Part shown: positions 235 to 51,659 of the stretch, piece by piece | How positions within the stretch are numbered: position 1 is the stretch's first letter | Layout: every line of letters starts with the position of its first letter | Assembly: GCA_031290195.1 (NCBI GenBank) | Contig: JAITOA010000018.1 | Span: 1 to 59,109, forward strand | DNA: 59,109 nucleotides | Source of the DNA: Puniceicoccales bacterium | GTDB taxonomy: Bacteria > Verrucomicrobiota > Verrucomicrobiia > Opitutales > JAIRLM01 | Direction: 5' to 3' | Made by a program: the position numbers and the translations under genes | Notes under the pieces: generated by a model | Database searches by the model: none | Told to the model about the DNA's origin: nothing | Seen by the model: only the letters and a program-made list of their open reading frames with translations

Positions 235-1380
235 TTGTCCTGCTCAAAGGATGATATCACGGTCACGGCTCCCATCGCAAATCCTTCACAGGGGGAAAAT
301 TTTATTTTAGGCGGAGCCGTAATGCCGACTTTTCCAGAAAACAGAGGGCACGTGGTTTCTCTCCTCGGTGGCATTCAGAAAATGGGGAAGGAAATTGAAA
401 CCAAAAGAGACATCGCTTTTGCCCTTCAAGAAGGACGCCATGAAGATCTCGGTGAATATCTCGTGGACAATTCAATAAGGAATGGGAATGTCATGCGTCA
501 TTCAATCGAAATTTTTGAGGAAGAATTTGGAAAAATAAGGGAAAAATATACCACGGAATCTGGCGATGAAATGTATAATTTGATCGCGCATAACATTGCT
601 CTCAAGGCAGTAAAAGAAGCGGCGGAAAAGCAGGAAAAAATTCCTATTTTTGCAGACATATTGCATCCTACTTCCATAGAAAACTTTGGACATATGACGG
701 TTGAGCGATTTGCTAAATTACCTCTCGTCGATGGGATAATTTTCCCGATAGATGGCCATAAAGATGACGTTATTCCGAAAAATCTTTTGGCCGCATATAA
801 TGCGCTTGTTTTTGCGATTGGTGCAGTTGTCAATGGAACAAAAAAACATTCTGGCTTTCCCACACCGATACATGTCACACATGCAATTTTCGAATTGCGC
901 GTTGATCACGTGTTTGTCGGAAAAGGAAATCGATCGCTCTACGAAGAATGTAGTGAAAGCTGCATGGAAAACGAGGAGATATTTCGAAAAGTGTCCTGTG
1001 GCACGGATGACTTTGAATGGGATTTTTTTAATCTTGTAAAAAATGCCATTGGCCTATTTTTTTTGAGGAAACGGGAATTGGATCGCGATGAATTAAGTCG
1101 GGACCTAGATTTGGCGTTTCCAAATATAGAACTAGTTTCGGAAAGCACGGAAGTAATGGTGGAAAATGATTCCTTTCTTTCAAATACTCCATTTCTCGGC
1201 AGACTCCATTTTAGGGAGCCGCTTACTCCAAAGCAATGTAATGCTGTAATAGGGATAATGCAAATAATTTCCAAAACTGTGAAAGATGAAGCCCTCACAA
1301 TTGGACGACAGTGGAGAAATATTTCAGCAAAACCGCCACTCATCCGGCTAGAGCAGTACCCGATTGGTAGCATTTCCTAG
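235..1380 (+). CDS. hypothetical protein, no recognisable family
   Basis: 381-codon ORF from TTG 235. The frame is open back to base 55. An alternative ATG at 322 is preceded by GGAG. No signal peptide or TM segment, and no motif I recognise. The region is clearly more AT-rich than the rest of the window. Confidence 0.6.
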   Translation: MSCSKDDITVTAPIANPSQGENFILGGAVMPTFPENRGHVVSLLGGIQKMGKEIETKRDIAFALQEGRHEDLGEYLVDNSIRNGNVMRHSIEIFEEEFGKIREKYTTESGDEMYNLIAHNIALKAVKEAAEKQEKIPIFADILHPTSIENFGHMTVERFAKLPLVDGIIFPIDGHKDDVIPKNLLAAYNALVFAIGAVVNGTKKHSGFPTPIHVTHAIFELRVDHVFVGKGNRSLYEECSESCMENEEIFRKVSCGTDDFEWDFFNLVKNAIGLFFLRKRELDRDELSRDLDLAFPNIELVSESTEVMVENDSFLSNTPFLGRLHFREPLTPKQCNAVIGIMQIISKTVKDEALTIGRQWRNISAKPPLIRLEQYPIGSIS

Positions 1381-1584: not shown

Positions 1585-4305
1585 TTACTTTGACTTCGCC
1601 GCTTCCTGCTCTAGAGCGGCCTGGGCGGCTGCCAGCTTGGCAACGGGGACTCGGTTTGGTGAACAGCTCACGTAGGTCAAACCAATGGAATGGCAAAATT
1701 TCACCGACACCGGATCGCCGCCGTGCTCGCCGCAGATGCCGAGGACGATTTCCTTCCGCGTCCTCTGGGCCCTCTCAACGGCCATGGCCATGAGTTCCCC
1801 CACGCCTTCCCTGTCGATGGTGGCAAAGGGATTTTGGGAAAAAATTTCCAAACCATTGTAGTGGCCGAGAAAACTCCCCATATCGTCTCGACTCATACCA
1901 AGGGTTGTTTGGGTGAGATCATTGGAACCAAAGCTGCAGAACTGGGCGATCTCCGCAATCTCGCCGGCCCGCAGACAGGCCCTCGGCAATTCAATCATCG
2001 TCCCGACTAGGTAGTCGAAGTCCACCCCCGATTCTTCCTTCACAGCAGCGGCAACCTCATGGACGATGGTTACCTGGTGCCGCAGTTCCTTTACAAACCC
2101 CACCAGGGGAATCATTATCTCCGGATGGGTGGCCACGCCCTGCTTTTTACACTGGACAACGGCTTCGAAGATTGCCCGCGCCTGCATGCGACTCACCTCC
2201 GGATAGGAAATGCCCAGGCGGCAGCCCCGGTGGCCTAGCATTGGGTTAAATTCCCGTAGCGCCCCAACTCGGGCCCGCACTCTTTCAAAGGGAATAGATA
2301 ATTTTTTTGCTAGAGCTCTCTGGGTATCCTCGTCGTGGGGAACGAATTCGTGGAGAGGGGGATCCAGGAGGCGGATCGTTGCCGGGAGTCCCTTCAGTGC
2401 CTTGAAAATACCGATGAAATCCTCTCTTTGGAAGGGAAGAAGCTTTGCCACCGCCAATTCCCTCTCCTCGGCCGACTCCGCGAGAATCATTTCCCGCATG
2501 AAATCGATGCGGTTGCCTTCAAAGAACATATGCTCTGTCCGCGTTAGACCGATGCCTTCGCCGCCGTAGCGCAGTCCCGCCAGCGCCTGCTTCGGGGAAT
2601 CGGCGTTGAGATAGACCTTTAATTTTCGACATTCATCGCACCAGGACATCAACTTGGCATACATGGTATAGATGGAACTTTTCCCTGCAGCCAGGGTGCC
2701 TTCCAGTACCTGGTTTACTTCCGATGGAACCGTGGCAACGGAGCCCAAAAAAACTTCTCCCGCTGTCCCATCGATGGACAGCTCCTCTCCCTCGCCGATC
2801 GTCAAACCGCCAACACGCATGGAGTGGGACGCATAGTCGATTTCCAGAGCCGCCGCACCGACGATGCACACCTTCCCCATTTGCCTGGCCACCAGTGCCG
2901 CGTGGGAACTCACCCCTCCGCGACTTGTCAAAATTCCTTCCGAAACCAGCATGCCCCGGATGTCCTCCGGAGAAGTTTCCGCCCGGCAAAGCAGCGCCTT
3001 TTCTCCGCGGCCATGGACTTCCTCCGCCTTTTTGGCGGAAAAACACACCTTCCCGGAAGCCGCTCCCGGGCCCGCCGGCAATCCCCGCGCAATGAGTTTT
3101 ACTCGCTTTTTGTCCTCCCCATTAAAAATAGGCACTAGCAGAGAAGAAATGGAGTCGGCTGGAATCCTAGCAATGGCGGTTTTTTTATCAATGAGCCCAT
3201 CTCGCTCCATCTCCAGGGCGATGCGTACGGCGGCAAATCCGGTCCGCTTTCCGTTTCGGGTCTGCAGCATGTAGAGCTTATTCTGCTGTACGGTGAATTC
3301 AAAATCCTGCATGTCGCGGAAGTGATTTTCCAATTTCTGGCGCACGGCAACCAACTCTCCGTAGACGTCGGGCATGTCCTTTTCTAGCGCGGCAATTGGA
3401 TTCGGTGTGCGAATTCCAGCCACTACGTCCTCTCCCTGGGCATCGATAAGGTATTCCCCGTAAAAAATGTTTTCTCCACTGGCCGGATCCCGGGTGAAGG
3501 CCACGCCGGTGGCAGAATCAGAGCCCATGTTGCCAAACACCATAGACTGAACGTTGACCGCCGTTCCCCACTCCCCGGGAATGCCATATTTTTGCCGGTA
3601 GAGGATGGCCCGCTCGTTGTTCCAGGAACGGAAAACGGCGCCGATGGCCCCCAGCAGCTGCTCTCCGACATCCTGGGGAAAATTCCGTCCCGTTGCCGCC
3701 CGGATCAATTCCTTGTAGCCGACGATGATGCCCTGAAGCTGTTCCGCACTCAACTGATTGTCAAATTGCACACCGGCGGACTTTTTTGCGGCAACGAGAA
3801 TTTCTTCGAAGGGATCTACGGAATGCTCATCCTTTGCGTGGACTTCCATGACAACGTCGCCGTACATTTGGATGAAGCGACGGTAGGAGTCGTAGGCAAA
3901 GCGTGGGTTGCGGGTGACATTGGCGAGCCCCTGGACGCTGACATCGTTGAGACCGAGATTGAGGATGGTATCCATCATGCCGGGCATGGATTCCCGGGCT
4001 CCGGAGCGGACGGAAAATAGCAGGGGTTCCTTTCCATCGCCGAACCGACGGCCCACCTGCTCCTCCACCCGCTTTAGTGCCTCATTCTTCTGCCGATTGA
4101 CGGCGTCGGGAAGTTTTCCCCCTCCGGCAGCAAAGGCGGCGCAAACTTCCGTCGTAATGGTAAATCCCGGAGGAACCGGCAGACCGATGTTGGCCATTTC
4201 CGCCAAATTTGCCCCCTTTCCTCCAAGCAACTCCCGCATCTTTGCATTGCCGTCGGTGTGCGCACCGAATTCATAGACGAACTTTTTTTCCTGCATCATA
4301 GACAT
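1585..4305 (-). CDS. ppdK: pyruvate, phosphate dikinase
   Basis: 906 aa. Motifs: N-terminal [10 protein letters not shown], phospho-histidine loop [20 protein letters not shown]-terminal [10 protein letters not shown]. Length and domain order are typical of PPDK. Confidence 0.97.
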
Positions 4306-4336: not shown

Positions 4337-4891
4337 CTACTTACCCTTGTTCACTTCCTCGATGACATCTTTGGTAATATCCATGGACGATTTCGCGTGA
4401 ATCACTTCAATGCCGGAAGTATTCAGAACAAGGTCGACCTTTCGCCGTTCCGCAACGGACTTCGCCGCCGTTCGGATTTCTTCGATGTGCTTGGTCACGA
4501 GTTTCTCCCTCCGTTCCATGAGCTCTCGGTCCGTCTGCTGGCGAAAAGAATTTACCTCGACTTCTTTCTTGCGAATTTCCTCCGTTACTTCGTCGGCCTG
4601 CTTGCGAAATTTTGTTCGAGCCGTCTCACTCAGGGAGGGATTGTCCATTTTTTCCCGCAGTTCCTGCAGCTCCTTGGCCATCTTTACACCCTCATCGAGC
4701 ATGGCCCGCATCTCCCCCTGGGCCTTTTCCACGGCTTCCTGGAACTGTTCCTTGGAACGCTCTGCGCGGGCATATTTGTTGTAAACCTTCGCCATGTCGA
4801 CGGTCACAATTTTACTCTGCGTACAATTTTTCCCGCAGGCCACCAGTGCCAAGGAACATGCTACCATTCCAATCGCCAAAAATTTCCCCAT
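4337..4891 (-). CDS. OmpH/Skp-family periplasmic chaperone, possibly lipidated
   Basis: About 184 aa from ATG 4891. Signal peptide MGKFLAIGMVACSLALVAC has a lipobox-like LVAC, followed by a Lys/Glu-rich coiled coil typical of Skp. The longer ORF reaching 5206 overlaps the upstream gene and encodes Pro/Arg-rich non-protein-like sequence. Confidence 0.8.
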   Translation of the reverse strand: MGKFLAIGMVACSLALVACGKNCTQSKIVTVDMAKVYNKYARAERSKEQFQEAVEKAQGEMRAMLDEGVKMAKELQELREKMDNPSLSETARTKFRKQADEVTEEIRKKEVEVNSFRQQTDRELMERREKLVTKHIEEIRTAAKSVAERRKVDLVLNTSGIEVIHAKSSMDITKDVIEEVNKGK

Positions 4892-5027: not shown

Positions 5028-6608
5028 TCACATACCCTTAGCAACCGCTGCAACCGATGGTATCGCGTCATTTGCGGTTTTCCCTTCGGGGCTGGAGGCA
5101 TTTTTCCACCCATCGGGCAAATCACGGAGCACGGGTAGCCCATAGCGCCTCTGGACGGCGAAGCGGAAGCTCCTAGCCTCCCCATCCTTGGCGTTGGGAA
5201 TGGCAAATCCGTCGACGTGCTCCGAGTTGGTTACTTTTGTTATCTCGGCAAAGTGGTCCGAAGTGGGCGAAAGGGGGACCTCCTTCAAAAAGGTGGGCGA
5301 CTGCTGGCCATAGGCGATGGAAATGCGGATTTTGTCGGGCGCATAGTCGATGAACAGGAAGCGTTCTTCGTAGATCCCCGTCTCCTTTTGCCTCAGGATG
5401 AGCAGGTGATCCAACTTTTGATCCATTACGACCACATTGTCGAAAATTTGCCCGGACATTTCCGCGCAGAAGAGTCCATCGCGGATGGCCTGCAGTTGGT
5501 TTTTGGCCCTGGAAGGATTGACCGATTGGATGTCATCGCCGAGCAGTTTGAGAATTAGAACGATGTAATCGTTGAATGGCATTGCATGGTGCTTCAGCAT
5601 GTAATTGTCGAAAAATTGGCTGGGGTTCTTTGTGTTGAGAACTTCGTCCCGATAATTGGAAGCCAGGTCCGTCCCGGTAACGCCGCCTTCCCCAATGGGC
5701 ATGTTGGCAACGACGAAATTCGCCTTGGGAATGAGATTGTAGCCGTCGTCGATGCGGGGACCATCCTTCTCCTTCATGGCACCCAAAATGGCGTCTAGCT
5801 GTCCTTTTAGAGATTTAGCCACCTTCATTTCCATGCGGATGGCTTCCAAATGTTTCCCCGTGCGTTCCAGTTTCTTTTGACTTTTCGCGTCCTTTTCATG
5901 GGAGAGCTTTTCAATTTGCTGATTCAGGACAGCCTCCTGGGCCAGATAGGTGTTAATGTCTTCTCCCATCTGCGCTTGTGCGTAGCTGAGTAGATTATAT
6001 TGCTCCGTCACGGACTTTGAATTGTCCATGGCCAATCGGAGTAATCTCTGCATGGGCTGCGGATAGGCGGAGAGATCTGTATCCTGCCCGGCAAGCGGTC
6101 TTGCCTCTCTCTCTTCCACCGGCGGCTGGGCCTCCCCATCGGCCTCGAAGGAATCCCCGCTGCCCTTCCCTTCTTGCCGTTCTCCGGCTCTTTCTTCCTC
6201 GCCTGTTGTCTCTTGGTCCGCTTCCGGACGACGCAGGGCATCGTCCCACAATTGTCGCTTGAAATTGACGTAGGAGGTGCCGTCGGCGTTCGGGTCCAGC
6301 CGCTGTGCGTAGGTTCTTGCTGCCCGTGTTGCCTTTGCCTCCTTTGCCATGTCCTCGGAGCGGACCGGTAATCCGCCACTGCCTCCGGAACCTCCGCCGC
6401 GAACGGACATTGGCCCATCCGAACCCTGGGTTGCCTTGGCCTGGGCTGCCTTCACCAGGGAGGCCGCGTTGGGCACAAAGGCACTCCTGTCATTGACTTC
6501 CCCTTCGGCGGCCGGAGCATCGCCGTCGGCTCCGACGCCCATTCTTTGCTGAAGAGACTGGATGGCGCTCTGCAGGTCCATGCGCCCCGTTGTTTCTCCG
6601 AAATCCAT
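5028..6608 (-). CDS. hypothetical protein with disordered acidic/Gly-rich N-terminal half and a YopN/SctW (HrpJ)-like C-terminal domain
   Basis: 526 aa from ATG 6608 (a TTG at 6629 is also possible). The segment NYRDEVLNT..FNDYIVLILKLLGDDIQSVNPSRAKNQLQAIRDGL aligns without gaps to my recollection of the YopN signature region. See findings. Confidence 0.75.
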   Translation of the reverse strand: MDFGETTGRMDLQSAIQSLQQRMGVGADGDAPAAEGEVNDRSAFVPNAASLVKAAQAKATQGSDGPMSVRGGGSGGSGGLPVRSEDMAKEAKATRAARTYAQRLDPNADGTSYVNFKRQLWDDALRRPEADQETTGEEERAGERQEGKGSGDSFEADGEAQPPVEEREARPLAGQDTDLSAYPQPMQRLLRLAMDNSKSVTEQYNLLSYAQAQMGEDINTYLAQEAVLNQQIEKLSHEKDAKSQKKLERTGKHLEAIRMEMKVAKSLKGQLDAILGAMKEKDGPRIDDGYNLIPKANFVVANMPIGEGGVTGTDLASNYRDEVLNTKNPSQFFDNYMLKHHAMPFNDYIVLILKLLGDDIQSVNPSRAKNQLQAIRDGLFCAEMSGQIFDNVVVMDQKLDHLLILRQKETGIYEERFLFIDYAPDKIRISIAYGQQSPTFLKEVPLSPTSDHFAEITKVTNSEHVDGFAIPNAKDGEARSFRFAVQRRYGLPVLRDLPDGWKNASSPEGKTANDAIPSVAAVAKGM

Positions 6609-6850
6609 GGGAAACCTTACAAAATCCAACGAAATTTGAAAAGCGCAATTTCCCCCAACGAATGACCAACCTCCTTTTTAGCTGACAAATGGCGCCCACC
6701 ATAGTGCTCCGCAGACAAAGGATCTCTCCGCAGCTCCGCGGGGACAATGATTGGCGATTGCGGTGGCGCATTGGCTTAGCAGTTTTTGCCAGAGTGATAT
6801 TTTCGTATTTCCTTTGACAGCCGAGGAGAACCATCGACAATTAATCCACC

Positions 6851-8164
6851 ATGGCAGATGGAATGGAAATTGTAAAAATTGTTGGCAGAGAAATTCTTGA
6901 TTCGCGTGGGAACCCAACGGTTGAGGTGGATGTTTGGCTGAAAGGCGGGGCCCGCGGAAGGGCCGCCGTCCCTTCCGGAGCAAGTACCGGGGAGCATGAA
7001 GCCGTTGAACTGCGGGACGCCGACGCCGATATTTCCTTCCTTCCGAAGGACGTGGATGCTGCCAGAAAACGCTATGGGGGTAAGGGAGTTTTGGCTGCGG
7101 TTTACTGCGTCAATCGATGTCTGGGACCGGCACTCATTGGATTTAATGCCGATGAGCAGTGGTCCATCGACCGAACCATGTTGGCCCTGGACGGCACTGC
7201 AACGAAGGGGAGACTTGGGGCCAATGGCATTTTAGGCATTTCCCTCGCCGTTGCCCGGGCGGCTGCGGAGGGTCACGGTCTTCCCCTTTACCGACATCTG
7301 GGGGGCATCCAGGCCCACGTTCTCCCGGTTCCCATGATGAACATTTTGAATGGAGGCGCCCACTCCGATGCACCGATCGATTTTCAAGAATTTATGATTG
7401 TTCCCCGGGGAGCAAAAAATTTTCCGGAGGCTGTACGCATGGGGGCAGAAATTTTTCACGAACTGAAAAAAGTTCTCCGTGCCAAAGGACTGTCGGCGGC
7501 GGTCGGCGATGAGGGCGGATTCGCTCCCATGCTGTCCTCTAACGAGGCTGTCCTCGACGCCATGGTGGCGGCCGTTCACGGAGCCGGCTATGCTCTTGGG
7601 GAGCAGGTATTTTTCGCCCTGGACGTTGCCGCTTCCGAGTTCTACGACAGGAAGAAGTCCCGCTATGTTTTCAAGAAATCGGACCGGTCGGAGCGTAGCG
7701 CCAGTGAGCTGATCAGCTACTACGGAGAGCTCTGTGGCCGCTATCCCATCGTTGCCATAGAAGATGGTTTGGATGAAAATGACTGGACAGGGTGGAAATT
7801 GCTCACGGAGAAACTTGGGGGAACCGTCCAACTGATAGGGGATGACCTCTTCGTTACAAACCCCCAATATCTATCCAGGGGCATCGGAGAAAAAACGGCC
7901 AACGCGATCCTCGTAAAGGTGAATCAAATTGGAACTCTAAGTGAAACTTTTGGAACCATTTCCATGGCAAAAAAAGCTGCATTTGGAACGATCATTTCCC
8001 ACCGCTCCGGGGAAACGGAAGACACAGCCATCGCAGACATTGCCGTGGCCACCAACGCTGGACAGATCAAAACTGGCTCCCTTTCTCGTACGGATCGCAC
8101 GGCCAAGTACAACCGACTCCTTCGCATCGGGGAAGAACTAGGTGCTAGCGCCACATTTGGGTAA
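6851..8164 (+). CDS. eno: enolase (phosphopyruvate hydratase)
   Basis: Motifs [39 protein letters not shown] and [10 protein letters not shown]. Full length at 437 aa. Confidence 0.97.
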
Positions 8165-8166
8165 GT

Positions 8167-9042
8167 TTAAACCTGTGATAGGCTACATAGGATGATATCC
8201 AGTAGCGCCGGAGCCAGGGGAAGGATCTCGGTGGGGTAGGGCGGCATTCGTCGGTGGACAAGATCTCCAATGGCGGTCGACCGTACGCAGGTCAACCGGG
8301 ACAGTGAGGAGAGTACGTTATCCGAGCAAAAGGCATAGGTAACACCGATGGAAATGGAAGCCACGTCGCCGCCATTGAGCTGTTTTGTGGCCATTTTCAG
8401 TGTTTTTCCAGTGACTACTTCATCGTCGAAGAGGAAGATGTGGCGACCCGCAATGGTTCTCGGAATATTGCTTTTTTCCGTTTTATCTAGGCACAGGTGA
8501 TCCGTAGATAGCAGCTCCGCAAGTCTTTGGACGAAGTTGCGGCGGCCTAGGTCTGGACTAACAAGGAGGTCAATTTTTGGGCGTAGCCTACGAACGTGGT
8601 CTGCCCAGAGGGATAGCGTAGAAATTTGCAGCGGTTGTTTCCGAAAATAATCCAAATAGTCCTCCCGGTGAAGGTCAAAGAGGACGATGCGGTCGGCGGG
8701 AATGGCCTCGAGCTGGCGAATGTAGGCGCGGACGCAGTGAGGTCGATTGGAGCGGCTGCAGTCGCCATAGGGTAGCACCAAAATGATGGGGCAGGCGTAT
8801 ATTTCCCGCAGAGATTCCACTGCAATGGCGATCTCTAGAAGCCGCCGTGGCGGCGGCGTGCGCGGCGACTTCGTGGCCCAGAGAAGGATTCGATCCGCCA
8901 TCCCAGAAAATATGGCATCCAGGCAAAAATTTCCTCCATAAAATCCCGTTCGCCGAAAAACTCCCTGCAAAACGCCGTCCGGAAGCACCTTTGGACGCTC
9001 TCCCCCCAAAGCAAAAAAAAGAGTGGTAGTCGATGATTCCAC
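8167..9042 (-). CDS. ribose-phosphate pyrophosphokinase (Prs)-like protein, divergent
   Basis: By-eye alignment to Prs: ILVLPYGDCSRSNR (cf. IPYFGYARQDR), DLHREDYLDYF (cf. DLHAxQIQGFF), LLVSPDLGRRN, PRPP loop IFLFDDEVVTGKT. GTG start lies 1 nt after the stop of the upstream gene. Confidence 0.75.
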   Translation of the reverse strand: MESSTTTLFFALGGERPKVLPDGVLQGVFRRTGFYGGNFCLDAIFSGMADRILLWATKSPRTPPPRRLLEIAIAVESLREIYACPIILVLPYGDCSRSNRPHCVRAYIRQLEAIPADRIVLFDLHREDYLDYFRKQPLQISTLSLWADHVRRLRPKIDLLVSPDLGRRNFVQRLAELLSTDHLCLDKTEKSNIPRTIAGRHIFLFDDEVVTGKTLKMATKQLNGGDVASISIGVTYAFCSDNVLSSLSRLTCVRSTAIGDLVHRRMPPYPTEILPLAPALLDIILCSLSQV

Positions 9043-9043
9043 G

Positions 9044-10063
9044 CTAAAATGCAGACTTAGAAACTTTTAACACCTCTACTCCAAAACTTTCCGCTATGGC
9101 CTTTGTGGTAGAGCCGACACTCCCGTCACCGACGTTATTTTCATCGATGGAGGTAATGGGTCTCACTTCCCCTAGGTTCGTCAAAAGAAAACACTCCGGG
9201 GCTGCGGTAAGATCTTGTATTTTTAGAACTTGGACGTTGCAAGAATATGCCAGCGCCGACAGAACATCGATGGCGGCCCGCTGCATTGGGGAGGAGGTAG
9301 CCATTTCCGGGGCCAGGATGGCTCCGTCGCGGCAGGCAAAAATTTCCCCGCCGGTGCAGGTGGTCACGGCGCCCTTTGTATCCAGCAGCAGTCCCTCTTC
9401 TCCCCCTTTTTCCCGTGCTCGATTCCGGGCCAGCACCGTTCCAACGAAAGACAATAAATTTCGCTCCAATGCGACCATTTCACCGGTGGTCGGCAGGTCG
9501 GACAGCGTTGATAGGCGGGTCGCGGGAAGTGGTTTTCCTTCAAAAACCTTTACGCCATGAGGAAAGATGATGAGTGAAGGAGCGATCTCCATTGCCTTTT
9601 CTTTTGGTTTTCCTTCGGCAATTTCCTTGGCGGGCGGTGCCTCCTTGGGAGCTTTTTCCTTCTCAGGAACTTCTTCTTTTTTCTTGGGAACCGGTGTTCC
9701 GGCACTGAAAATGACCCGCAGGACGGCATCCTTGCCGCCGTAGCCATTCATGTCATAGGTGACAGCCAGTGCTTCCTTGACGTCGTTGACCTCCCACGGG
9801 AAAGGCATGCCGAGGTCACCCGCAAGTTTTCGAAGGTATTCCAGCCGCTCGTCCAGACGGTAAAATTTTCCTTCCCGGCAACCGAAGCAATCACGCACGC
9901 CAATGGACCGCAAAAAACCTTCACCGCCCACGGAGATTTTCGCATCTTCCCAGTCGTAGAGTGCTCCGTTGACGTAGACCTTCACCGGAAGGAATGTAGC
10001 TGAAATTTTTGCGGAGGAAAATGTTTTTTTCCCGCCAACGGACCCTGGTTTTCCGAATTGCAT
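9044..10063 (-). CDS. aminotransferase class IV-fold protein (BCAT/PabC-like) with Lys/Glu/Pro-rich insertion
   Basis: The N-terminal region VYVNGALYDWEDAKISVGGEGFLRSIGVRDCF..GKFYRLDERLEYLRKLAGDLGM and the C-terminal region GLLLDTKGAVTTCTGGEIF..GAILAP match the class IV pattern. There is a roughly 37-aa insert PVPKKKEEVPEKEKAPKEAPPAKEIAEGKPKEK. Confidence 0.7.
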   Translation of the reverse strand: MQFGKPGSVGGKKTFSSAKISATFLPVKVYVNGALYDWEDAKISVGGEGFLRSIGVRDCFGCREGKFYRLDERLEYLRKLAGDLGMPFPWEVNDVKEALAVTYDMNGYGGKDAVLRVIFSAGTPVPKKKEEVPEKEKAPKEAPPAKEIAEGKPKEKAMEIAPSLIIFPHGVKVFEGKPLPATRLSTLSDLPTTGEMVALERNLLSFVGTVLARNRAREKGGEEGLLLDTKGAVTTCTGGEIFACRDGAILAPEMATSSPMQRAAIDVLSALAYSCNVQVLKIQDLTAAPECFLLTNLGEVRPITSIDENNVGDGSVGSTTKAIAESFGVEVLKVSKSAF

Positions 10064-10105
10064 GGCCGGGCTCGACTTTTGGCGAAAAAGTGCAACGCTC
10101 TTCCG

Positions 10106-10645
10106 GTGATTTCTAAAAGAATTTCCAGAAATTCTTCCGGGAACAATGGTGGATTTACGCTGATTGAGCTTCTTCTGGCGACGGGCATTTTCTCCGTTCT
10201 ATTTCTGTCGACGTTCCGCTTCATTGTCCACGGTTCCGGACGAATTGGGATGGAAATTTCCCATCTGAACGCCTCCCTCGAGCGCGCACGACTCCTCTAT
10301 GTTCTGGAACGGGACCTGCCGGCCGCCAAAAATTTTTCCCCGAAACAACTGCCGAACGGAGTCCGATGGGAATTTCCGGAAACCCCCGCGGAAGAGGCAT
10401 CGTCCAAAGTTTATATTTTCAATCCGGCGTCGGAGCGACTCCACCGAATTTCCCTGCCTCCGGCCGCAGAACTTCCTCCGGACTCCCAGAGCAACCGGAC
10501 GGTTCTCCTGGAAGGGATTGTTGAATTTTTCCTCGCCGCTGACCGTGAAGGTGAAAATTTTTCGGACTCCGTTGCCGTCACCACGCGGTTCCGCGGAGAA
10601 AAGAATTCCGTTCGCTCGGTAATTCCCCTGCGACAACGTTTTTAG
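10106..10645 (+). CDS. prepilin-type N-terminal cleavage/methylation domain protein (type II secretion/type IV pilus pseudopilin-like)
   Basis: Basic leader followed by G/FTLIELLLATGIFSVLFL, with Glu at +5. GTG 10106 gives a 16-aa leader. The ORF is open from TTG 10058, which would overlap the divergent gene. Confidence 0.75.
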   Translation: MISKRISRNSSGNNGGFTLIELLLATGIFSVLFLSTFRFIVHGSGRIGMEISHLNASLERARLLYVLERDLPAAKNFSPKQLPNGVRWEFPETPAEEASSKVYIFNPASERLHRISLPPAAELPPDSQSNRTVLLEGIVEFFLAADREGENFSDSVAVTTRFRGEKNSVRSVIPLRQRF

Positions 10646-27807: not shown

Positions 27808-29157
27808 ATGAAACTTTTGACGAAGCATGCGCACGGTTCCGTGCGGGAGCTGTGGACCATTGCGTGGCCGCTGGTTTTATCGGCGGCGGCCAATATGTTT
27901 ATGCTGCTGGGAGACCGCATTGTGCTGTCCCGCTACTCCACGGAAGCCTTCAACGCAAATGTCGGTGCTCTGCCCTGGGTTTGGACGGCCTATTTCCCAT
28001 TATTTTCCATCGTTTTTATTGCCAATGTTTTCGTCGGCCGTCACAATGGTGCCGGTGACTTTAAGAAAATTGGGCCCACCGTCTGGCAAATGCTGTGGTT
28101 TTCCCTTGCCCTTCTAGTTCCCTTACTGCCACTCTCCTACTTCCTTGCACCCCATTTGCTCGCCCATGATCTTCGCGGGCTCGGGGTTCCCTATTTGCGC
28201 ATCCTGCTGCCATCGGTGCCCATTTCCCTGGCCTCTTTCGGGGCGTTGGCTGCTTTTTTTACGGGTCGTGGGGAGACCCGCCTCGTTTCCGCCGTATCCC
28301 TATTTTGCAACGTGCTCAATTTTGCCTTGGATACGCTGCTGGTTTTCGGCATCGGCCCCTTTCCTGAAATGGGTATCTGCGGTGCCGCCTGGGGAACGGT
28401 CATTGCCCAGCTGATTGCTCTTTGTCTTTTCGGATTTTTTTTCCTCGACCGGCGTCACCGGGAGAAGTACGGGGTCAATGACTGCCGTTTCAATGGCCGC
28501 ATTTTTTGGCAATGCTTCCGCGTTGGCGGCCCCAATGCCTTTAGTGCGACGATCAATTTTATCCTGTGGAGCTGGATCGTTCAGGTGATGGCCCACTACG
28601 TCAGTTCGGAAAATTTTACCGCCTTCGGGGTCAGCAATACGCTCTTTTACTTTCTGCTATTCTTTGTCGAAGGGGTGAGTTTGGCTACGGGAACCATTGC
28701 CTCCAACGCCTACGGTGCCGGTGCCTGGGAGGTCATCGGAAGGAACGCACGTTCCTGGCTAAAATTATCCATTTCCTTCAGTATTTTTGCTTTTTTTGTG
28801 ATGGTGATTTACCCGCGCCCCCTCCTGTTTTTCTTCGTCGACGGACCGATGACCGATGGCTTCCGGTCAAATCTAAAGACCATGCTTTTTCTTACCTGGC
28901 TTGCCATCGCCAACACCGGCATAGAATTCAATCAGCGGCAAACTCTAACTGCCTTCGGGGACACTCTTTTTACCATGGGGGCCAGCCTGTTCGGCTACGC
29001 CGGGATGGTCATTATCCCGGGATTCATTGCCCTCCGAATGACCCACAACGGCGCCTCCTTCCTCGTTGTGGAGGCCATCAGTCAGATTTTTTTCATCATC
29101 ACTTTTTACCTGCGCTACCGTTTCCACTGGATGCGGCATCGGTCCCCGTCGCCGTGA
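27808..29157 (+). CDS. MATE family efflux transporter
   Basis: 12-TM profile with N-terminal VRELWTIAWPLVLSAAANMFMLLGDRIVLSRYS, typical of NorM/DinF-like MATE proteins. Confidence 0.9.
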   Translation: MKLLTKHAHGSVRELWTIAWPLVLSAAANMFMLLGDRIVLSRYSTEAFNANVGALPWVWTAYFPLFSIVFIANVFVGRHNGAGDFKKIGPTVWQMLWFSLALLVPLLPLSYFLAPHLLAHDLRGLGVPYLRILLPSVPISLASFGALAAFFTGRGETRLVSAVSLFCNVLNFALDTLLVFGIGPFPEMGICGAAWGTVIAQLIALCLFGFFFLDRRHREKYGVNDCRFNGRIFWQCFRVGGPNAFSATINFILWSWIVQVMAHYVSSENFTAFGVSNTLFYFLLFFVEGVSLATGTIASNAYGAGAWEVIGRNARSWLKLSISFSIFAFFVMVIYPRPLLFFFVDGPMTDGFRSNLKTMLFLTWLAIANTGIEFNQRQTLTAFGDTLFTMGASLFGYAGMVIIPGFIALRMTHNGASFLVVEAISQIFFIITFYLRYRFHWMRHRSPSP

Positions 29158-30120
29158 CGGATGCACAGTTCCATGGATCGTTAAATTTTTCCCATCGGAG
29201 GAACATTGCCAATGTGCGGCCAGGGAATGGCAAAATTTTTTACCGCACTCTATGTTTTCTAGAAAAATTGCCATCTGCCGCCGGCTAACAGTGAATTTTT
29301 GTTCCGAAAAGAAACGGTGAAGGACCCGCCTCCGCAGGGCCCGGGGGGCGCCTTTGAGAGGTTCTAGTCGCAGGAAGGAGCCCGCCACGGAAATTTCATG
29401 GAGGTCACTGGCCAGCGATTCCAGGGCATCGGAGTCTTCGAGGAGCAATTCCCGACTGTGGAGCAGTGACCTTTCAAAGTTCCGCAGCGGTTCGAAGGAG
29501 CGCCAGAGGGGCAGCAGTTCCAGACGGACACGGTTTCTGGTGTGGACAGGCTGGCCGTTGGTTTCGTCCTCGCACCAGGGCTGACCAATGGCCACCAAAT
29601 ATTGTTTCAAGTTCTCCTTCGTTAGGTGCAATAGGGGGCGCAGGTGCACGCTTCCATCCAGAAATCGCTGGACTTCACGGGGTGCCGTAAGTCCCTCCAA
29701 ATTAGCTCCGCGGGCCAGCCGCAGCAGAAAAGTTTCCAGGGCGTCGTCCCGATGGTGGGCGGTGAGCAGGTAGGGCGTGTGATAGTCGGCCATGACACGG
29801 CGGAAAAATGCCATCCGGTGCCGCCGAAGGTCCGCCTCATTGAGTCCGCCCCCATTCTCCAGGGAGGACCGGTGAAAGGGAAGTTCCAGCTCCGAAGTCA
29901 GATTTTCCACAAATTTTTGATCCCGCCGGGAAGTTATTGGCCGAACGCCGTGGTCAAAGTGGAGAACGGCGAGCCGACTCCGCAGCTGCGGAGTCGTTCC
30001 GTGGAGAAGACGGAGGAGGGCGACGGAGTCGGCGCCGCCGGAGCAGGCGACACAGAGGACTTCCCCGGGAAATTCTCCGGTGGCGGCGAGCGCGTTTTCG
30101 GAGAGAAAAACTCCTTCCAC
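28945..30120 (-). CDS. tilS: tRNA(Ile)-lysidine synthase
   Basis: PP-loop VACSGGADSVALL lies about 25 aa after GTG 30120. The ORF is open to 30399, but that extension has no homology and overlaps the divergent gene. The last ~70 codons run antisense to the MATE gene. Confidence 0.88.
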   Translation of the reverse strand: MEGVFLSENALAATGEFPGEVLCVACSGGADSVALLRLLHGTTPQLRSRLAVLHFDHGVRPITSRRDQKFVENLTSELELPFHRSSLENGGGLNEADLRRHRMAFFRRVMADYHTPYLLTAHHRDDALETFLLRLARGANLEGLTAPREVQRFLDGSVHLRPLLHLTKENLKQYLVAIGQPWCEDETNGQPVHTRNRVRLELLPLWRSFEPLRNFERSLLHSRELLLEDSDALESLASDLHEISVAGSFLRLEPLKGAPRALRRRVLHRFFSEQKFTVSRRQMAIFLENIECGKKFCHSLAAHWQCSSDGKNLTIHGTVHPSRRRGPMPHPVETVAQVKSDDEKNLTDGLHNEEGGAVVGHSEGNESRDNDHPGVAEQAGPHGKKSVPEGS

Positions 30121-30251
30121 CGACGCAGGACAAAAAAAATTCAGAGGGAAGCAAGAATTTCGACCGGGAAAAATGGAATGGAAAATGTGAAGAAGATCCT
30201 TTTTTGCAAAAAACCCTTGCGCAGAAAGAAAAAAGTTTGGAAAATCCGACC

Positions 30252-33200
30252 GTGATCTACTGGAAACGGCGACGGGTGTTATCAAATTGCAGCGGCATTT
30301 CAGGGAAGAAAGGAAGCGGTGGGTCGGCCGGAGCGGACAAATCCGGGCCATCACTACGGAAAAATCTTCTTTTCGGTCTGATCGCCGCAGTAACGGCATT
30401 TTTCCCGGTCCAGTCTGCCACCGCGGCCGTTTACAGCTACACTGATAGCATAGGAGCCCGCGTCGAAGCTGAGGAGTCTTTGGCCATTTTCGGAAATGAA
30501 ATCGTTGTTGAGGGTGAGTACTATTTTACTCCGGACAGCAGTACATGTGATAACAAGGTGCAAGTAAACTACGGTAGCGCGAAAGCCGATCCGGACCATA
30601 TTTTTGGTGGCCTGTCCATCGGAATCGGCAATGTCCATGGCAATGAAGTTGAAGTCATAAATGACAATGACTGTGAAACCGTGAATATCCACGGAGGATT
30701 TGCTTTCTACGGGGACGCGTATGGGAATGAGCTGATGATTGGTGCATCCGCCTCCGCCAATGGAGCCATGGGGGGATCCGCTTACCTGGGGAATGCCCAT
30801 GGCAATATCCTCACATTTCGGGGAATTTTTGCGGACTTCCTCTGTGGAGGTTGCGTTGGTTCCAGGGGAAATGCCTACGAAAATGAAGTGATCATTTCTG
30901 CGGACGACGACAGCACCATCGAGAAAGTTCACGGCGGAAGAACCTTCTGGGGAGATGCCTGTAGCAACGTTGTGTCTGTTTTCGGTGGAACTATTTCCGA
31001 AGAAATCCACGGCGGCGAAGTCATGAACGACGGCAATGCCCATGGAAATTCGGTAAAAATTTTTGCGTCCTCTGATGAGTGCGATGTGACCATATTTGGC
31101 GGCAGCGTCGCGGGAATGGGTGATGCCTACGGAAATGTCGTTGGGGTTGTTGGTGAGAACGATGACGGTGACCTCTTCTCCGTTGGCGCTATTCAGACGT
31201 CCGTCGGCGACATCCATGGAGGCTACGCGAACAGCGGAGATGCCTACGGGAATAACGTTTACTTTTCCGGGGGTTCCGGAGGAAATTTCTACGGCGGCAC
31301 ATCCATGGCCAATGGGTGTATCGGAAATGCATATAATAACAGAGTAAAAGTTTTTTCCGGGGAAGTTGGGGATGTCCACGGGGGATACTGCGCCGGATCT
31401 GGAAATGTGTATGGCAATGGGGTGGAAATTTCCGGATCCGACACCGAAGTGGGATCCGTTTTCGGAGGCTATGTCCAATTGGTATGTAGAGAGATAGAAT
31501 ATGAGGATGAGGATGGAGATATAGAGGAAGTGGAAGATGAAGTTCCCGCCGCCCCCGCCGGAGTCGCATCCGGCAAATATGAAGTTATCGGCGGCTTCGG
31601 AGACGCATCCGGCAATTTTGTATCTTTTTCGGGTGCCCATTCCGCCGATGTCTTCGGCGGGAAAACTTCTTTCGGCGATTCCTGCGGCAATGTGGTGTCA
31701 ATTTCCTCCGGAGAAATTTCCGATTCCGTCATCGGTGGATGTAGCTTTAAGGGTCATTCCTGCAACAATGTTGTGAATATTTCCGGTGATAGTACGTCCG
31801 TTGCATACTGCATTGTAGGCGGCTGCGTTGACCTATGGCTCCCCGACGAACCTACGGTGTACGATGATGGGACCGAATTTTCCTACGGAACCTATTGGGA
31901 CTACGAAGACCGCGGTGGTATCGGAAATGCATGTGGAAATAGTGTGAATTTTTCCGGTCAATGGTGCAGCGAGATCTATGGGGGGTACACGTTCTTTGGA
32001 AATGCGAGCGGCAATGCGGTAACCATTTCCGGCGGTGGAATTGATTATGTGTACGGTGGTTACACGGAAAGGGGCGACGCCGATGGCAACACCGTTAATC
32101 TTTCCAATTGCTCAGTTAGAGCAGCCGGTGGTGGCTTGACGGATATCTGGGGTAATGCGCGGAACAATGTCGTCCATGTGAAGGATTCCTCTGTTTGGGG
32201 TCAAGGAGTTTGGGGAGGCAGTGCGGAATTTGGCATAGTCAAAGGCAATAGTGTGTGCATTGAAAACTCCTATGTTTCGGGTTCAATCGTTGGCGGTGAG
32301 GCCGTGGATGCTCGGAGCCACGTGTGCAATAACTCGGTAACTATCGCCGGCACCTCTGACATTTCCAGCGCGACGCTGCTCGGCTGGTCGTCGCTTTCCG
32401 GAGGAACTTTGGCGATGCACGGCGGAAACGCCCTCCATTTGAAGGGTTGGAGAGGAAGCGTTGCCAGCATTCAAAATTTTGAAATTCTCCGCTTCACTCT
32501 ACCTCGAGGAATCGAAAATGGAGAAACCATCGCAACCGTTGCTACCCCTGGCCCACTTAAGGTAGTAGTCTCTGACTGCGGATTAATCCTCCAGGATGAT
32601 TTTCTGGTCGAGATTGCCATCGACGCAACGCCGAAGCTCGTTGGAAACGACGAAATTTGCCTGATCGACGCTTCCGAGTGCGTATCAGGAGACTATGTCG
32701 TGGCCGATTTTGCCAATGACGACGACCAAACCACCTGCCGCTACGGCTGCAGCAATTACACCTTTGACCTGAGCGAAAGAAGTAACTGTCTCTACGCGAA
32801 ACTTACCAACGTCGAGCTCGTTCGCTCCTACCTGCATGGCGTTGCGGCGCGGACCAATGTGATCAATTCCAGCGGCGACCACATTTCCGGGCTCATTGAA
32901 AATTGGCAATTCGAAGAAGATTTCCTCGTGGCCAATAAAAAATTCAGCTGGTTCATCTCCGCCTTCGGAGAAAAAATGCACGCGAAGACAACTCCGGCCG
33001 TGACGAACCGGCGGGGATTGTTTGTTCTTGGCGGTGCCCTGGAGGGAGTTACGGCGACCGGTCAGCTGGTGGCCGGCCTGGCCACGGAGTGGGGCCTGGA
33101 TAGGTACAGTGTCATCGACGACTACGGAGGAGGGGATGGGAAAATTATCCATGCCGGATTAAATCTCTTCGCCATGCACCAGTGCGCCGGCGGGGTCATG

Positions 33201-33716
33201 GCCAGCGTTGCTGCCCGGTTCGGTGCTGGAAAAATTGAAGATGACGACGGCATTGGGGGGGGCTATGAGAATCGGAGCGCCTACTGTGGGACCCGAGTAG
33301 CCATCGGCTACGACCTGAGAGTTTCGCCAAAGGGAACCGTCGAAGGCCTAACAAAGCTCCTTTGGAACCGTCAATTCGATAAAAACTTACTCTCGCGAGC
33401 CGGAGAAGATCTGCGATTCGACGCCGTAAATTCTCTGAGAACCCAACTATGTCTGCGCTACGTGCATAGTACCCCAGAAGGATCCAATCTATTCGCCGGA
33501 ATTGCCTGGGAGAGGGAATTTGACGGAAAGATATCCGGCGGCGTCGGCGCCATCCACTATGGCGGGGACCATCTTGAACGGAAAGACAGTGCTCTTTTTG
33601 AACTTGGCCTGGAAGTCAAAACCGCAGAGCGCTGGGTCCTACAATGCGGCGCCCAGGGTTCAATTGGCGCCAGAGACGGCGTATCCGCAAGCCTGAAATT
33701 CTGCAAGAGCTTCTAG
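30252..33716 (+). CDS. large autotransporter-like outer-membrane repeat protein (paralogue 1)
   Basis: Signal-like LLFGLIAAVTAFFPVQSATA, a passenger of roughly 750 aa built from G(D/N)AxGNxV...GG repeats, and a C-terminal beta-barrel-like ~280 aa ending KFCKSF. Start is GTG 30252 or 30276; the ORF open from 29937 is antisense to tilS. Confidence 0.85.
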   Translation: MIYWKRRRVLSNCSGISGKKGSGGSAGADKSGPSLRKNLLFGLIAAVTAFFPVQSATAAVYSYTDSIGARVEAEESLAIFGNEIVVEGEYYFTPDSSTCDNKVQVNYGSAKADPDHIFGGLSIGIGNVHGNEVEVINDNDCETVNIHGGFAFYGDAYGNELMIGASASANGAMGGSAYLGNAHGNILTFRGIFADFLCGGCVGSRGNAYENEVIISADDDSTIEKVHGGRTFWGDACSNVVSVFGGTISEEIHGGEVMNDGNAHGNSVKIFASSDECDVTIFGGSVAGMGDAYGNVVGVVGENDDGDLFSVGAIQTSVGDIHGGYANSGDAYGNNVYFSGGSGGNFYGGTSMANGCIGNAYNNRVKVFSGEVGDVHGGYCAGSGNVYGNGVEISGSDTEVGSVFGGYVQLVCREIEYEDEDGDIEEVEDEVPAAPAGVASGKYEVIGGFGDASGNFVSFSGAHSADVFGGKTSFGDSCGNVVSISSGEISDSVIGGCSFKGHSCNNVVNISGDSTSVAYCIVGGCVDLWLPDEPTVYDDGTEFSYGTYWDYEDRGGIGNACGNSVNFSGQWCSEIYGGYTFFGNASGNAVTISGGGIDYVYGGYTERGDADGNTVNLSNCSVRAAGGGLTDIWGNARNNVVHVKDSSVWGQGVWGGSAEFGIVKGNSVCIENSYVSGSIVGGEAVDARSHVCNNSVTIAGTSDISSATLLGWSSLSGGTLAMHGGNALHLKGWRGSVASIQNFEILRFTLPRGIENGETIATVATPGPLKVVVSDCGLILQDDFLVEIAIDATPKLVGNDEICLIDASECVSGDYVVADFANDDDQTTCRYGCSNYTFDLSERSNCLYAKLTNVELVRSYLHGVAARTNVINSSGDHISGLIENWQFEEDFLVANKKFSWFISAFGEKMHAKTTPAVTNRRGLFVLGGALEGVTATGQLVAGLATEWGLDRYSVIDDYGGGDGKIIHAGLNLFAMHQCAGGVMASVAARFGAGKIEDDDGIGGGYENRSAYCGTRVAIGYDLRVSPKGTVEGLTKLLWNRQFDKNLLSRAGEDLRFDAVNSLRTQLCLRYVHSTPEGSNLFAGIAWEREFDGKISGGVGAIHYGGDHLERKDSALFELGLEVKTAERWVLQCGAQGSIGARDGVSASLKFCKSF
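33255..33262 (+). repeat. G8 homopolymer inside the barrel-coding part of autotransporter paralogue 1
   Basis: cattGGGGGGGGctat encodes GIGGGY. Confidence 0.95.
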
Positions 33717-45913: not shown

Positions 45914-50476
<4,563 letters not shown>

Positions 50477-50552
50477 TGGGGATTTTGGCAATGGAATTTT
50501 CAGAAAAGGGCATCCCCTTGACAGATGTTTTTTCAATGCACAAAATGTCCAG

Positions 50553-51089
50553 ATGGCAAGGGAGGGGCAGCGTGGATTTACTCTGCTGGAGATGGTGGTG
50601 GTCCTTACTCTCCTGGCGATGGCGTCGGCATTTACTTTTCACTTTCCGCAGCGTGCCACCCACGGATCCGTCGCATCCAAAGTACTTCAGTCCTATCTGC
50701 AGAGCGTGGTTGACCACGGCCTCTCCCACGGCACTTCTAACCGAAAATTACTCATTGGCAATTCGAAGCAGAGGGAAGGAGCCCTCTGTGAATTTCTTCT
50801 GGCAATCGAAGGGGAAGGAGAATTCGAAATCAGAGCAGATCTACGCTGTGACCTGAGCAACTTTGGCACCATTGCCCCGCCCGGTGACGGTCTCTGGGAT
50901 AGCCATTTCCCGGCTGTTCCACTGGAAATCAAGAACACCATGGCGGGGCGATGGCTTGCCGTTCCTTTGGAAAATTTTTTACCAACAACCGCCGATTCAC
51001 TGCGCATCGTCTTTCTCCCTCGGAACGGGAGTCGACCCACCCAATTCTCCATTTCCGCCAATGGAAAAGTTATCGCAGAAAAAATGTGA
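50553..51089 (+). CDS. prepilin-type N-terminal cleavage/methylation domain protein (pseudopilin)
   Basis: MAREGQRG/FTLLEMVVVLTLLAMASAF. Confidence 0.75.
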   Translation: MAREGQRGFTLLEMVVVLTLLAMASAFTFHFPQRATHGSVASKVLQSYLQSVVDHGLSHGTSNRKLLIGNSKQREGALCEFLLAIEGEGEFEIRADLRCDLSNFGTIAPPGDGLWDSHFPAVPLEIKNTMAGRWLAVPLENFLPTTADSLRIVFLPRNGSRPTQFSISANGKVIAEKM

Positions 51090-51456
51090 GGGATTTACCC
51101 TCATCGAAGTTGCGGCGGCTCTGGTACTTTTGCTGCCAGTGCTACTTCTGGCCAATGAAATGTTCCTCTACCTGCAACGCCAATTTGCCCTCCAGGTGGC
51201 CCGGGCAGAACTGCCGGAACTCCGTAGGACCCTCGAAGATTTTTTGGAAAAAACAAGTCGCACGCCACACGGCGGAGAGTCTACCGTAGGCGTCACCTGG
51301 CATCGGAACGATGCCGGAACGATTCAAATTGAAGAATTGCAGGACGAAAAATTGCCAAAAAAATACCTGCAACTCACTCCCGTGGCCGGCATCGACCTCT
51401 GGCGCTGCGAATGGCAAAATGGAGAACTGTTCCGTGCCTTCTTCCTGGCTCCCTAG
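51061..51456 (+). CDS. prepilin-type N-terminal cleavage/methylation domain protein (pseudopilin)
   Basis: MEKLSQKKCEG/FTLIEVAAALVLLLPVLLLA. Overlaps the preceding pseudopilin gene by 29 nt. Confidence 0.7.
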   Translation: MEKLSQKKCEGFTLIEVAAALVLLLPVLLLANEMFLYLQRQFALQVARAELPELRRTLEDFLEKTSRTPHGGESTVGVTWHRNDAGTIQIEELQDEKLPKKYLQLTPVAGIDLWRCEWQNGELFRAFFLAP

Positions 51457-51650
51457 GCGGGACAGGGGGTCTACTTGCGCCGAAAACGTCTTACCAAACT
51501 CCGACTCTCCTCGAAGAGCCAGCACCCGAACGTGGTGAATTTCATGGCAACGGGGAGTTGCCATCGTTAAAAATTTATTGCGCATCCGTGTGTTTTTTTA
51601 GAAAATTAAGAACCATGGGTAAAAAAGTCTTTGCGGATACCTCCTTGGGA

Positions 51651-51659
51651 GGGGGGGGG
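51651..51659 (+). repeat. G9 homopolymer at the translation start of autotransporter paralogue 2
   Basis: ttGGGAGGGGGGGGGATG. The tract fills the spacer between an SD-like GGGAGG and ATG 51660. If ATG 51615 is used instead, it encodes Gly-Gly-Gly. Confidence 0.95.

Follow-up and report, generated by a model that had tools for sequence, protein, structure and literature searches.

A type III secretion gatekeeper homologue with a replaced C-terminal domain in termite-gut Puniceicoccales

The locus and its product

The DNA analysed here, called the window throughout, is a stretch of 59,109 nucleotides (positions 1 to 59,109 of contig JAITOA010000018.1) of a Puniceicoccales bacterium (assembly GCA_031290195.1), and the gene of interest is a coding sequence on its minus strand (5028..6608), intact from an ATG at 6608 to the stop codon and 526 amino acids long. 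Its product has a helical core homologous to the gatekeepers (SctW) of type III secretion systems (T3SS), followed by an α/β domain where those proteins carry TyeA, and it is encoded away from any detectable injectisome gene. Alternative starts exist upstream (TTG at 6629) and internally (ATG at 6581), the latter giving MDLQSAIQ, the N-terminus of the closest homologues. All the peptides quoted in the original prediction, which had read this gene as an orphan gatekeeper homologue with a long disordered extension, were found in the 526-residue product. The layout of the protein, with the evidence for each part, is as follows; AF2 stands for AlphaFold2 and pLDDT for its predicted local distance difference test score.

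5028..6608, minus strand: whole coding sequence, member of a family of about 20 clusters found only in termite-gut Puniceicoccales.
6228..6608, minus strand: N-terminal region, residues 1-127 (hhalign alignment to sister-clade gatekeepers, invariant residues, pLDDT).
6084..6227, minus strand: acidic, Gly-rich insertion, residues 128-175 (composition, pLDDT <50, variable in length, unaligned).
5373..6083, minus strand: SctW/HrpJ-like helical domain, residues 176-412, corresponding to the gatekeepers' X-bundles 1 and 2 (hhalign, hmmsearch, BopN match, Foldseek).
5826..5957, minus strand: helical-hairpin ('coiled-coil') insertion of about 44 residues, 218-261 (gap in the hhalign alignment to classical SctW).
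5481..5756, minus strand: family signature, residues 285-376 (invariant columns, aligned to BopN and the HrpJ consensus).
5118..5372, minus strand: C-terminal β-β-β-α-β-α domain, residues 413-497 (AF2, Foldseek; conserved RYG(L)P motif).
5031..5117, minus strand: variable, disordered C-terminal tail, residues 498-526 (pLDDT <50, unaligned in the family alignment).

The AF2 model of the full protein, built on the family alignment, gives confident structure to residues 82-102 and 111-125 (two N-terminal helices), 184-410 (a block of helices) and 416-489 (a β/α unit), with pLDDT <50 at residues 1-10, 22-82, 128-174 and 503-526. Two very long helices in the model, 200-236 and 241-288, account for the coiled-coil-like block of the original prediction and contain the hairpin insertion, which by hhalign is absent from classical SctW proteins and common to the gatekeepers of a sister clade. 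On the other hand, the last ~250 residues do not form the single helical domain that had been expected, as the helices stop at about residue 410 and residues 413-497 adopt the β-β-β-α-β-α topology. No hydrophobic segment was found in the protein (maximum Kyte-Doolittle mean over 19 residues, 0.96), which leaves it with neither a Sec signal peptide nor a membrane anchor.

Homology of the helical core to SctW gatekeepers

Single-sequence scans of Pfam and NCBIfam with the window protein gave no HrpJ or TyeA match at E <= 10, and a phmmer search of the PDB gave nothing relevant; matches to BRE1 and TuaF in the Pfam and NCBIfam scans of the protein and its homologues were dismissed as noise. An indexed protein search returned eight relatives at 37-48 % identity, all annotated as 'hypothetical', the named ones coming from metagenome-assembled genomes (MAGs) of Puniceicoccales. 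When the nine family members were scanned against Pfam, one of them reached HrpJ (PF07201) with E = 0.058, below the cut-off. Their alignment contains about 57 invariant positions, most of them in the folded parts, the linkers being variable, and among them are the motifs RIxDGYNxxPK, LAxxYRxxVL and LLGDDxxSxNPSR, followed by an R. Since so many residues are invariant over nine members of such low mutual identity, and since they lie in the folded parts, the alignment reveals long-term purifying selection on the family.

A profile of the core matched a single PDB sequence, Bordetella BopN (7yyg_A, E = 0.008), over exactly the stretch that the original prediction had aligned to Yersinia YopN. 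The family signature aligns here to IRAGxN / YRD / LGxDLxSxxPS of BopN and of the HrpJ consensus, the classical gatekeeper consensus at this site being LRDFYRxxVL...GxDLxSxGPS. The proposed YopN alignment thus stands in that YRD...LLGDDxxSxNPS fits the classical signature; YopN itself was not significant by sequence, BopN being the only match. In this line, an exhaustive HMMER search of 1.84 billion representative proteins with the family profile found 83 proteins in three tiers, namely full-length family members (tier i), proteins of 340-450 residues matched in the helical part only with E values of 1e-42 to 1e-12 (tier ii), and proteins of about 370 residues with E values of 1e-10 to 1e-3 (tier iii). 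Most tier-iii proteins carry Pfam HrpJ (40/42, best E 2e-30), and 34/42 also carry TyeA. Their profile matches BopN (1e-78), YopN (8.5e-45), MxiC, CopN, TyeA and InvE in the PDB, which identifies the tier-iii proteins as SctW gatekeepers of the classical kind.

Direct comparison of profiles with hhalign aligned the family to tier iii with 99.6 % probability (E 8.8e-24) over 173 columns, with one 44-residue insertion in the target (218-261), and to tier ii with E values of 2e-43 for the core and 6e-44 when the N-terminus was included, while a profile of the bridging clade matched BopN at 1.6e-9. Moreover, Foldseek searches with the full AF2 model recovered InvE (9y93), BopN (7yyg), YopN (1xl3_B), MxiC (2vix, 2vj4) and CopN (4nrh_C) over 206-259 columns, with template modelling scores relative to the target (TMt) of 0.35-0.49, so that the MxiC and YopN structures singled out in the original prediction for comparison were both retrieved. 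As profile searches, hhalign and Foldseek agree despite the sub-threshold Pfam score, sequence and predicted structure give good support for a homologue of the SctW/HrpJ domain at residues ~185-405, which bears out the proposed relationship of the helical core to the gatekeeper family. The lack of a significant HrpJ match, named beforehand as grounds for abandoning that relationship, holds for the direct Pfam hmmscan and was overturned by the more sensitive profile tests.

In common with the SctW family (YopN-TyeA, MxiC, InvE, SepL, CopN, BopN, HrpJ, PopN-Pcr1; PF07201 plus PF09059), the protein has the same helical core with the signature IRxGxN...YRD...LGxDxxSxxPS, a disordered N-terminal region ahead of the helical bundles and a matching predicted fold. 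It differs in the absence of TyeA, or third X-bundle, whose place is taken by an RNase H-like α/β domain, as well as in its 44-residue hairpin insertion, its long acidic linker, its score below the Pfam threshold and its lack of a detectable injectisome. Two of the three consecutive X-bundles that define the family are thus kept and the third is replaced by an α/β domain. By descent the protein belongs to the SctW superfamily, yet it should not be annotated as SctW, since the Pfam threshold, the third X-bundle or TyeA and the T3SS context all fail. Chlamydial CopN, a gatekeeper homologue from the Planctomycetes-Verrucomicrobia-Chlamydiae superphylum that was matched through structures 4nrh and 4p3z, has all three X-bundles and a full T3SS in its genome, whereas our protein is without the third bundle and no SctV was detected in genomes related to its own. 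CopN is likewise encoded away from most apparatus genes, and it has a second role as an effector.

The N-terminal region and the acidic linker

The hhalign alignment of the full family to the tier-ii gatekeepers spans residues 43-407 (E 5.9e-44) and takes in a PNAASL motif and the two N-terminal helices, both of them conserved within a block of pLDDT 62-90; Y113, F116 and R126 are invariant in the family alignment. Residues 1-127 are, as judged from this alignment, homologous to the N-terminal region of the sister-clade gatekeepers, which is that of the secretion signal and chaperone binding, and most of them are predicted to be disordered. The segment that follows (128-175) contains 25 % Glu and 15 % Gly with a net charge of -10, and appears from the alignment to be an insertion of variable length among family members. 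In this regard, the description of the first ~190 residues as low-complexity, acidic and Gly-rich fits residues 128-175 and a Gly/Ser-rich, low-complexity stretch at about 60-85, and fails as a claim of uniform disorder given the conserved helices and the PNAASL motif. Similarly, what had been called an N-terminal extension consists for the most part of the N-terminal region that gatekeepers themselves have, aligned from residue 43 onwards, to which the acidic insertion has been added.

The C-terminal domain

The tail of the protein had been tentatively taken for a fused TyeA-like module, an idea that did not survive: no TyeA (PF09059) match was obtained in the Pfam scan of any of the nine family members, homology to tier ii ends at residue ~407, some 12 residues before the tier-ii TyeA domain begins, and the tail has an RNase H-like fold. 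Modelled alone, residues 400-505 reach a pLDDT of 90 and a predicted template modelling score of 0.79. The best Foldseek matches are to YqgF/RuvX (1nmn_B, E 1.8e-5; 7ess_A, template modelling score relative to the query (TMq) 0.64, 2.8 Å over 87 columns), followed by the central domain of Pelota/eRF1, ASKHA half-domains, RuvC and uS11. The C-terminal domain is therefore confidently modelled as an RNase H-like, YqgF/RuvX-like fold in the position of TyeA or third X-bundle.

The topology is shared with YqgF/RuvX and other RNase H-like folds such as the Pelota/eRF1 central domain, uS11 and ASKHA half-domains (TMq 0.60-0.64, 2.8 Å), while identity to these domains is 11-17 %, without sequence similarity, the catalytic β1 Asp and the other carboxylates are unconserved, and the domain is fused to a gatekeeper. 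Among 19 diverse members the only conserved positions in this domain are G411, Y413, I444, D466 and R488-Y489-G490, none of them a catalytic carboxylate in β1, and a profile of the domain matched no chain in the PDB; the Pfam scans of the family members assigned it to no family. An active RuvX-like nuclease was rejected for want of conserved carboxylates. Because no β1 carboxylate is conserved and no PDB sequence is matched, the domain is most likely a non-catalytic binding module. A further protein from the exhaustive search (P0047, 128 residues) matches this domain in its C-terminal half, and its N-terminus, 'LLYEDPEIMVVDKPAGLL', resembles the beginning of a pseudouridine synthase of the RluA type; a chimeric or frameshifted gene call is the probable explanation.

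The sister clade and its injectisome

Tier ii comprises 39 loci from termite-gut Puniceicoccales/Opitutales MAGs (P0020-P0037, L013-L051), where the gatekeeper gene sits in a conserved operon with the order sctD-sctI-sctF followed by sctW-chaperone-sctX-TPR (sctY-like)-sctV, TPR denoting tetratricopeptide repeat. Upstream of sctW, and divergent from it, we find SctD, SctI, the needle protein SctF and a TPR chaperone, and downstream a class I chaperone-like protein of 130 residues, YscX, a small TPR protein and SctV (FHIPEP, E 6e-233); TyeA is either fused to the gatekeeper or encoded by a separate second open reading frame (ORF). As these gatekeeper genes lie in a conserved T3SS operon with TyeA, the clade is credited with a Ysc-type injectisome, and its gene content suggests a complete-looking cluster with its own gatekeeper and TyeA. 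The tier-ii proteins are the nearest relatives and the sister clade of our family (hhalign E 6e-44, residues 43-407) and have the N-terminal region and the coiled-coil insertion in common with it; they have TyeA and a T3SS operon whereas the target family has neither.

The Ysc-type cluster was seen in at least 39 species-level termite-gut Puniceicoccales/Opitutales MAGs (L013-L093; for example L046 8896-14789 and L030 6791-9804), and SctV is 82-99.7 % identical within the tier-ii clade. The SctV proteins of L021, L024, L027, L033, L040, L042, L043 and L046, which are different species-level MAGs from different termite hosts, are 96-99 % identical in amino acids against 85-95 % in nucleotides, a nucleotide identity low enough to reject cross-bin contamination as the cause of their likeness. 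The gatekeeper adjacent to these near-identical export gates is only 51-86 % identical between MAGs, which suggests that the export gate is under extreme purifying selection and that the gatekeeper evolves fast. In several T3SS-bearing MAGs, among them that of L046 (9932-10831 and 10869-11414), the gatekeeper is split into two ORFs within X-bundle 2, the break falling between the YRD and LGxDxxSxNPSR motifs and the second ORF carrying TyeA (E 1.7e-9). The split point differs from that of yopN/tyeA in Yersinia, and a frameshift, a recoding event or a true split may underlie it.

Search for a type III apparatus

The gene is flanked by skp/OmpH (4337-4891, minus strand), which is the downstream gene, ppdK (1585-4305, minus strand) and eno (6851-8164, plus strand), so that the gene calls agree with the neighbours named in the original prediction. 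Its statement that the 59 kb hold no T3SS apparatus gene was upheld as well: no T3SS or flagellar Pfam domain was found in about 45 large ORFs of the window, and tblastn with eight sister-clade T3SS proteins gave nothing in the window or in twelve tier-i loci. No T3SS gene was found in the 13 related family loci, and the search took in about 250 kb of tier-i loci in addition to the window.

At the level of genomes, two peptide patterns from the SctV C-domain were run over the genome collection. They found SctV in 37/39 tier-ii MAGs, including 14/16 with sctV and sctW on different contigs, and in 0/9 MAGs carrying the target family; the same patterns also reached SctV proteins of 53-56 % identity in Victivallales, Lentisphaeria and Kiritimatiellae MAGs. 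The nine family-bearing MAGs are JAITSI, JAISOW, JAITFC, JAIRXB, JAITDG, JAIRTQ, JAIRMB, JAITDL and JAIRXK. The NCBI locus-tag prefixes of the two groups are disjoint (LBC42, LBB14, LBF26 and LBI34 for tier i; LBB20, LBH49, LBF42, LBG98, LBB16, LBD34, LBC68 and LBE98 for tier ii). Altogether, the orphan status claimed for the gene was supported in the window, in the 13 loci and in the genome-level comparison of SctV.

Carriers and evolutionary placement

The nine family loci in GTDB species-representative genomes all belong to MAGs named 'Puniceicoccales bacterium', whose sample codes Nm470, Gsp477, Cc175, Ct408, Iy174 and Roe453 denote gut metagenomes of lower termites, Nm470 being Neotermes meruensis and Gsp477 Glyptotermes (PMC11707648). 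At least 19 clusters, formed at 50 % identity, have intact ORFs of similar length; the only annotation of the family at present is 'hypothetical protein', and it is invisible to Pfam. The Chlamydiae to which the original prediction had turned for its parallels are thus the wrong frame, the organism being a termite-gut member of the Verrucomicrobiota, and a chlamydial origin was rejected on the same grounds. No conserved neighbour, operon partner or chaperone gene was found in the 10+3 family loci, deeper-branching members included, as every neighbourhood differs. Next to one deep-branching member lies a gene for a eukaryote-type ubiquitin C-terminal hydrolase of 485 residues (PF00443 UCH; L174 12119-13576, minus strand), a possible sign that the bacterium interacts with a eukaryotic host.

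The helical domain common to these proteins was used for a neighbour-joining tree of 53 sequences over 178 columns with 100 bootstraps, which recovered tier i as monophyletic with a support of 99, tier ii with 88, and tiers i and ii together against classical SctW with 100, the mean distance within tier i (1.08) being similar to that within tier ii (1.16). NusA of the window is 66-77 % identical to that of five tier-i MAGs, 46-49 % to that of thirteen T3SS-bearing termite MAGs and at most 42 % to that of other Opitutae/Verrucomicrobiota; as these identities split in the same way as the tiers, the gene tree agrees with the grouping of the organisms. On this evidence the family would be an orthologue-like descendant of the clade's gatekeeper in a separate and old lineage. 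In the simplest history the ancestor had the injectisome, and this lineage lost the apparatus but kept its gatekeeper gene and remodelled it; a possible variant, instead of simple vertical descent, is that the gene was duplicated long ago and the copies were lost reciprocally.

Other genes of the window

The other large ORFs of the window are of housekeeping type and encode ClpB, PNPase, NusA, IF-2, Obg, DnaE, TrmD, subunit a of ATP synthase, RNase III, TilS, MgtE and others. An ORF of at most 1259 codons without a Pfam family (29937-33716, plus strand) overlaps tilS (28945-30399, minus strand) with its 5' end, so that its true start probably lies further in. No significant Pfam family was assigned to ORFs of 885 codons (51411-54068, plus strand) and 381 codons (235-1380, plus strand), or to one of 291 codons (8167-9042, minus strand) with only a faint phosphoribosyltransferase signal. 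Two small proteins (10058-10645 and 50454-51089, both plus strand) carry a prepilin-type N-terminal methylation motif and are pseudopilin-like.

A proposed role and its alternatives

The reading that we favour, with a probability of roughly 60 %, is that of a vertically inherited gatekeeper that was kept and remodelled after its injectisome was lost, or ceased to be detectable, and that now works as a cytoplasmic adaptor. Homology, domain swap, orphan status and lasting conservation of the family are shown by the results above; the adaptor role and its partners are what we infer. The protein keeps the N-terminal region of SctW and its first two X-bundles, including the family signature, has lost the TyeA or third-bundle module, in whose place it carries an RNase H-like domain without the catalytic carboxylates, and has gained the long acidic disordered linker. 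In canonical systems TyeA mediates the association of the gatekeeper with SctV. Since SctW associates with the SctV export gate (PMC13231503) and the part of the gatekeeper concerned is gone, the protein presumably no longer gates secretion. The conserved surfaces of the X-bundles and the N-terminal region may still bind a partner, much as gatekeepers bind chaperone heterodimers or chaperone-translocator complexes, and the new C-terminal domain would attach the resulting complex to a different target, which may be a protein or, possibly, a nucleic acid.

Several points weigh against this reading. The adaptor mechanism is generic, as no partner or conserved neighbour is known; direct scoring against Pfam HrpJ fails; and the conserved N-terminal region, resembling a signal and chaperone-binding region, is what may be expected of a protein that is still secreted or chaperone-bound. 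The absence of a T3SS, for its part, depends on incomplete MAGs and on two SctV peptide patterns, the genome of the window itself being represented by these 59 kb, and the family-bearing MAGs may have a T3SS that is foreign or very divergent, or else an export apparatus of flagellar type.

The protein could accordingly still be a working gatekeeper, a substrate, or both, of a T3SS that was missed in the MAGs or is too divergent, its C-terminal domain being a lineage-specific replacement of TyeA. Such a system would suit the homology of the N-terminal region to a signal and chaperone-binding region, the invariance of the signature motifs and the absence of a Sec signal or transmembrane segment, as in T3SS substrates; chlamydial T3SS genes are scattered as well. 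We nevertheless hold it to be quite unlikely, because SctV was recovered in 37/39 MAGs of the neighbouring lineage from the same study, 14/16 of those with separate contigs among them, and in 0/9 of the carriers, with patterns that reach down to 53 % identity, because about 250 kb of tier-i loci, plus the window, yielded no T3SS gene, and because the module that docks on SctV is missing. A role as an exported, host-directed effector, in the manner of CopN acting on tubulin or of BopN, would require delivery into a termite-gut flagellate through a flagellar T3SS, outer-membrane vesicles or lysis. The lineage occurs only in lower termites, which have gut flagellates, the disordered linker, long and acidic, is of the kind seen in effectors, and one family member adjoins the eukaryote-type UCH deubiquitinase gene; moreover, relatives of these bacteria are endosymbionts of termite-gut protists (PMC8204192), and CopN and BopN are gatekeepers that double as effectors (PMC10269732). 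However, no signal peptide or export route was identified in the protein and no flagellar genes in the window, the helical domain is tied to no host target, and a symbiotic lifestyle of this particular lineage is a presumption; we hold this explanation to be unlikely.

At the other extreme, the gene might be a decaying remnant devoid of function, or its likeness to gatekeepers a chance resemblance between helical proteins, given that the direct Pfam and NCBIfam searches were empty and that helical and coiled-coil proteins produce spurious matches such as those to BRE1 and Ndc80. This we regard as very improbable in the face of intact ORFs in at least 19 clusters that span a deep radiation and have invariant motifs in each of the two folded domains, and of the convergence of hmmsearch, hhalign at 99.6 %, five gatekeeper structures in Foldseek and sister genes in T3SS operons.

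Implications

Gatekeepers are regarded as dedicated parts of the injectisome. If the proposed adaptor role is true, the X-bundle scaffold can be reused outside secretion, and the family would offer a natural 'separation-of-function' variant, in which binding of a partner or chaperone is set apart from docking on SctV. A bolder version, to which we give somewhat less than an even chance, is that this is the first T3SS gatekeeper exapted to a T3SS-independent role, in a lineage that is probably associated with protists: the SctW scaffold would have been kept over at least a whole sister radiation, TyeA swapped for a YqgF/uS11-like domain and the bundles perhaps rewired to a target linked to nucleic acids or the ribosome. 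A possible parallel is Scc4, the chlamydial chaperone of CopN, which doubles as a regulator of RNA polymerase.

No description of a T3SS or injectisome in Puniceicoccales, or of an orphan gatekeeper with a swapped domain, was found in the searchable literature, itself incomplete. Many Puniceicoccales of the lower-termite gut carry an apparently undescribed and extremely conserved Ysc-type T3SS, which bears on their dealings with the gut flagellates, and the two neighbouring lineages give a clean contrast between loss and retention of the T3SS.

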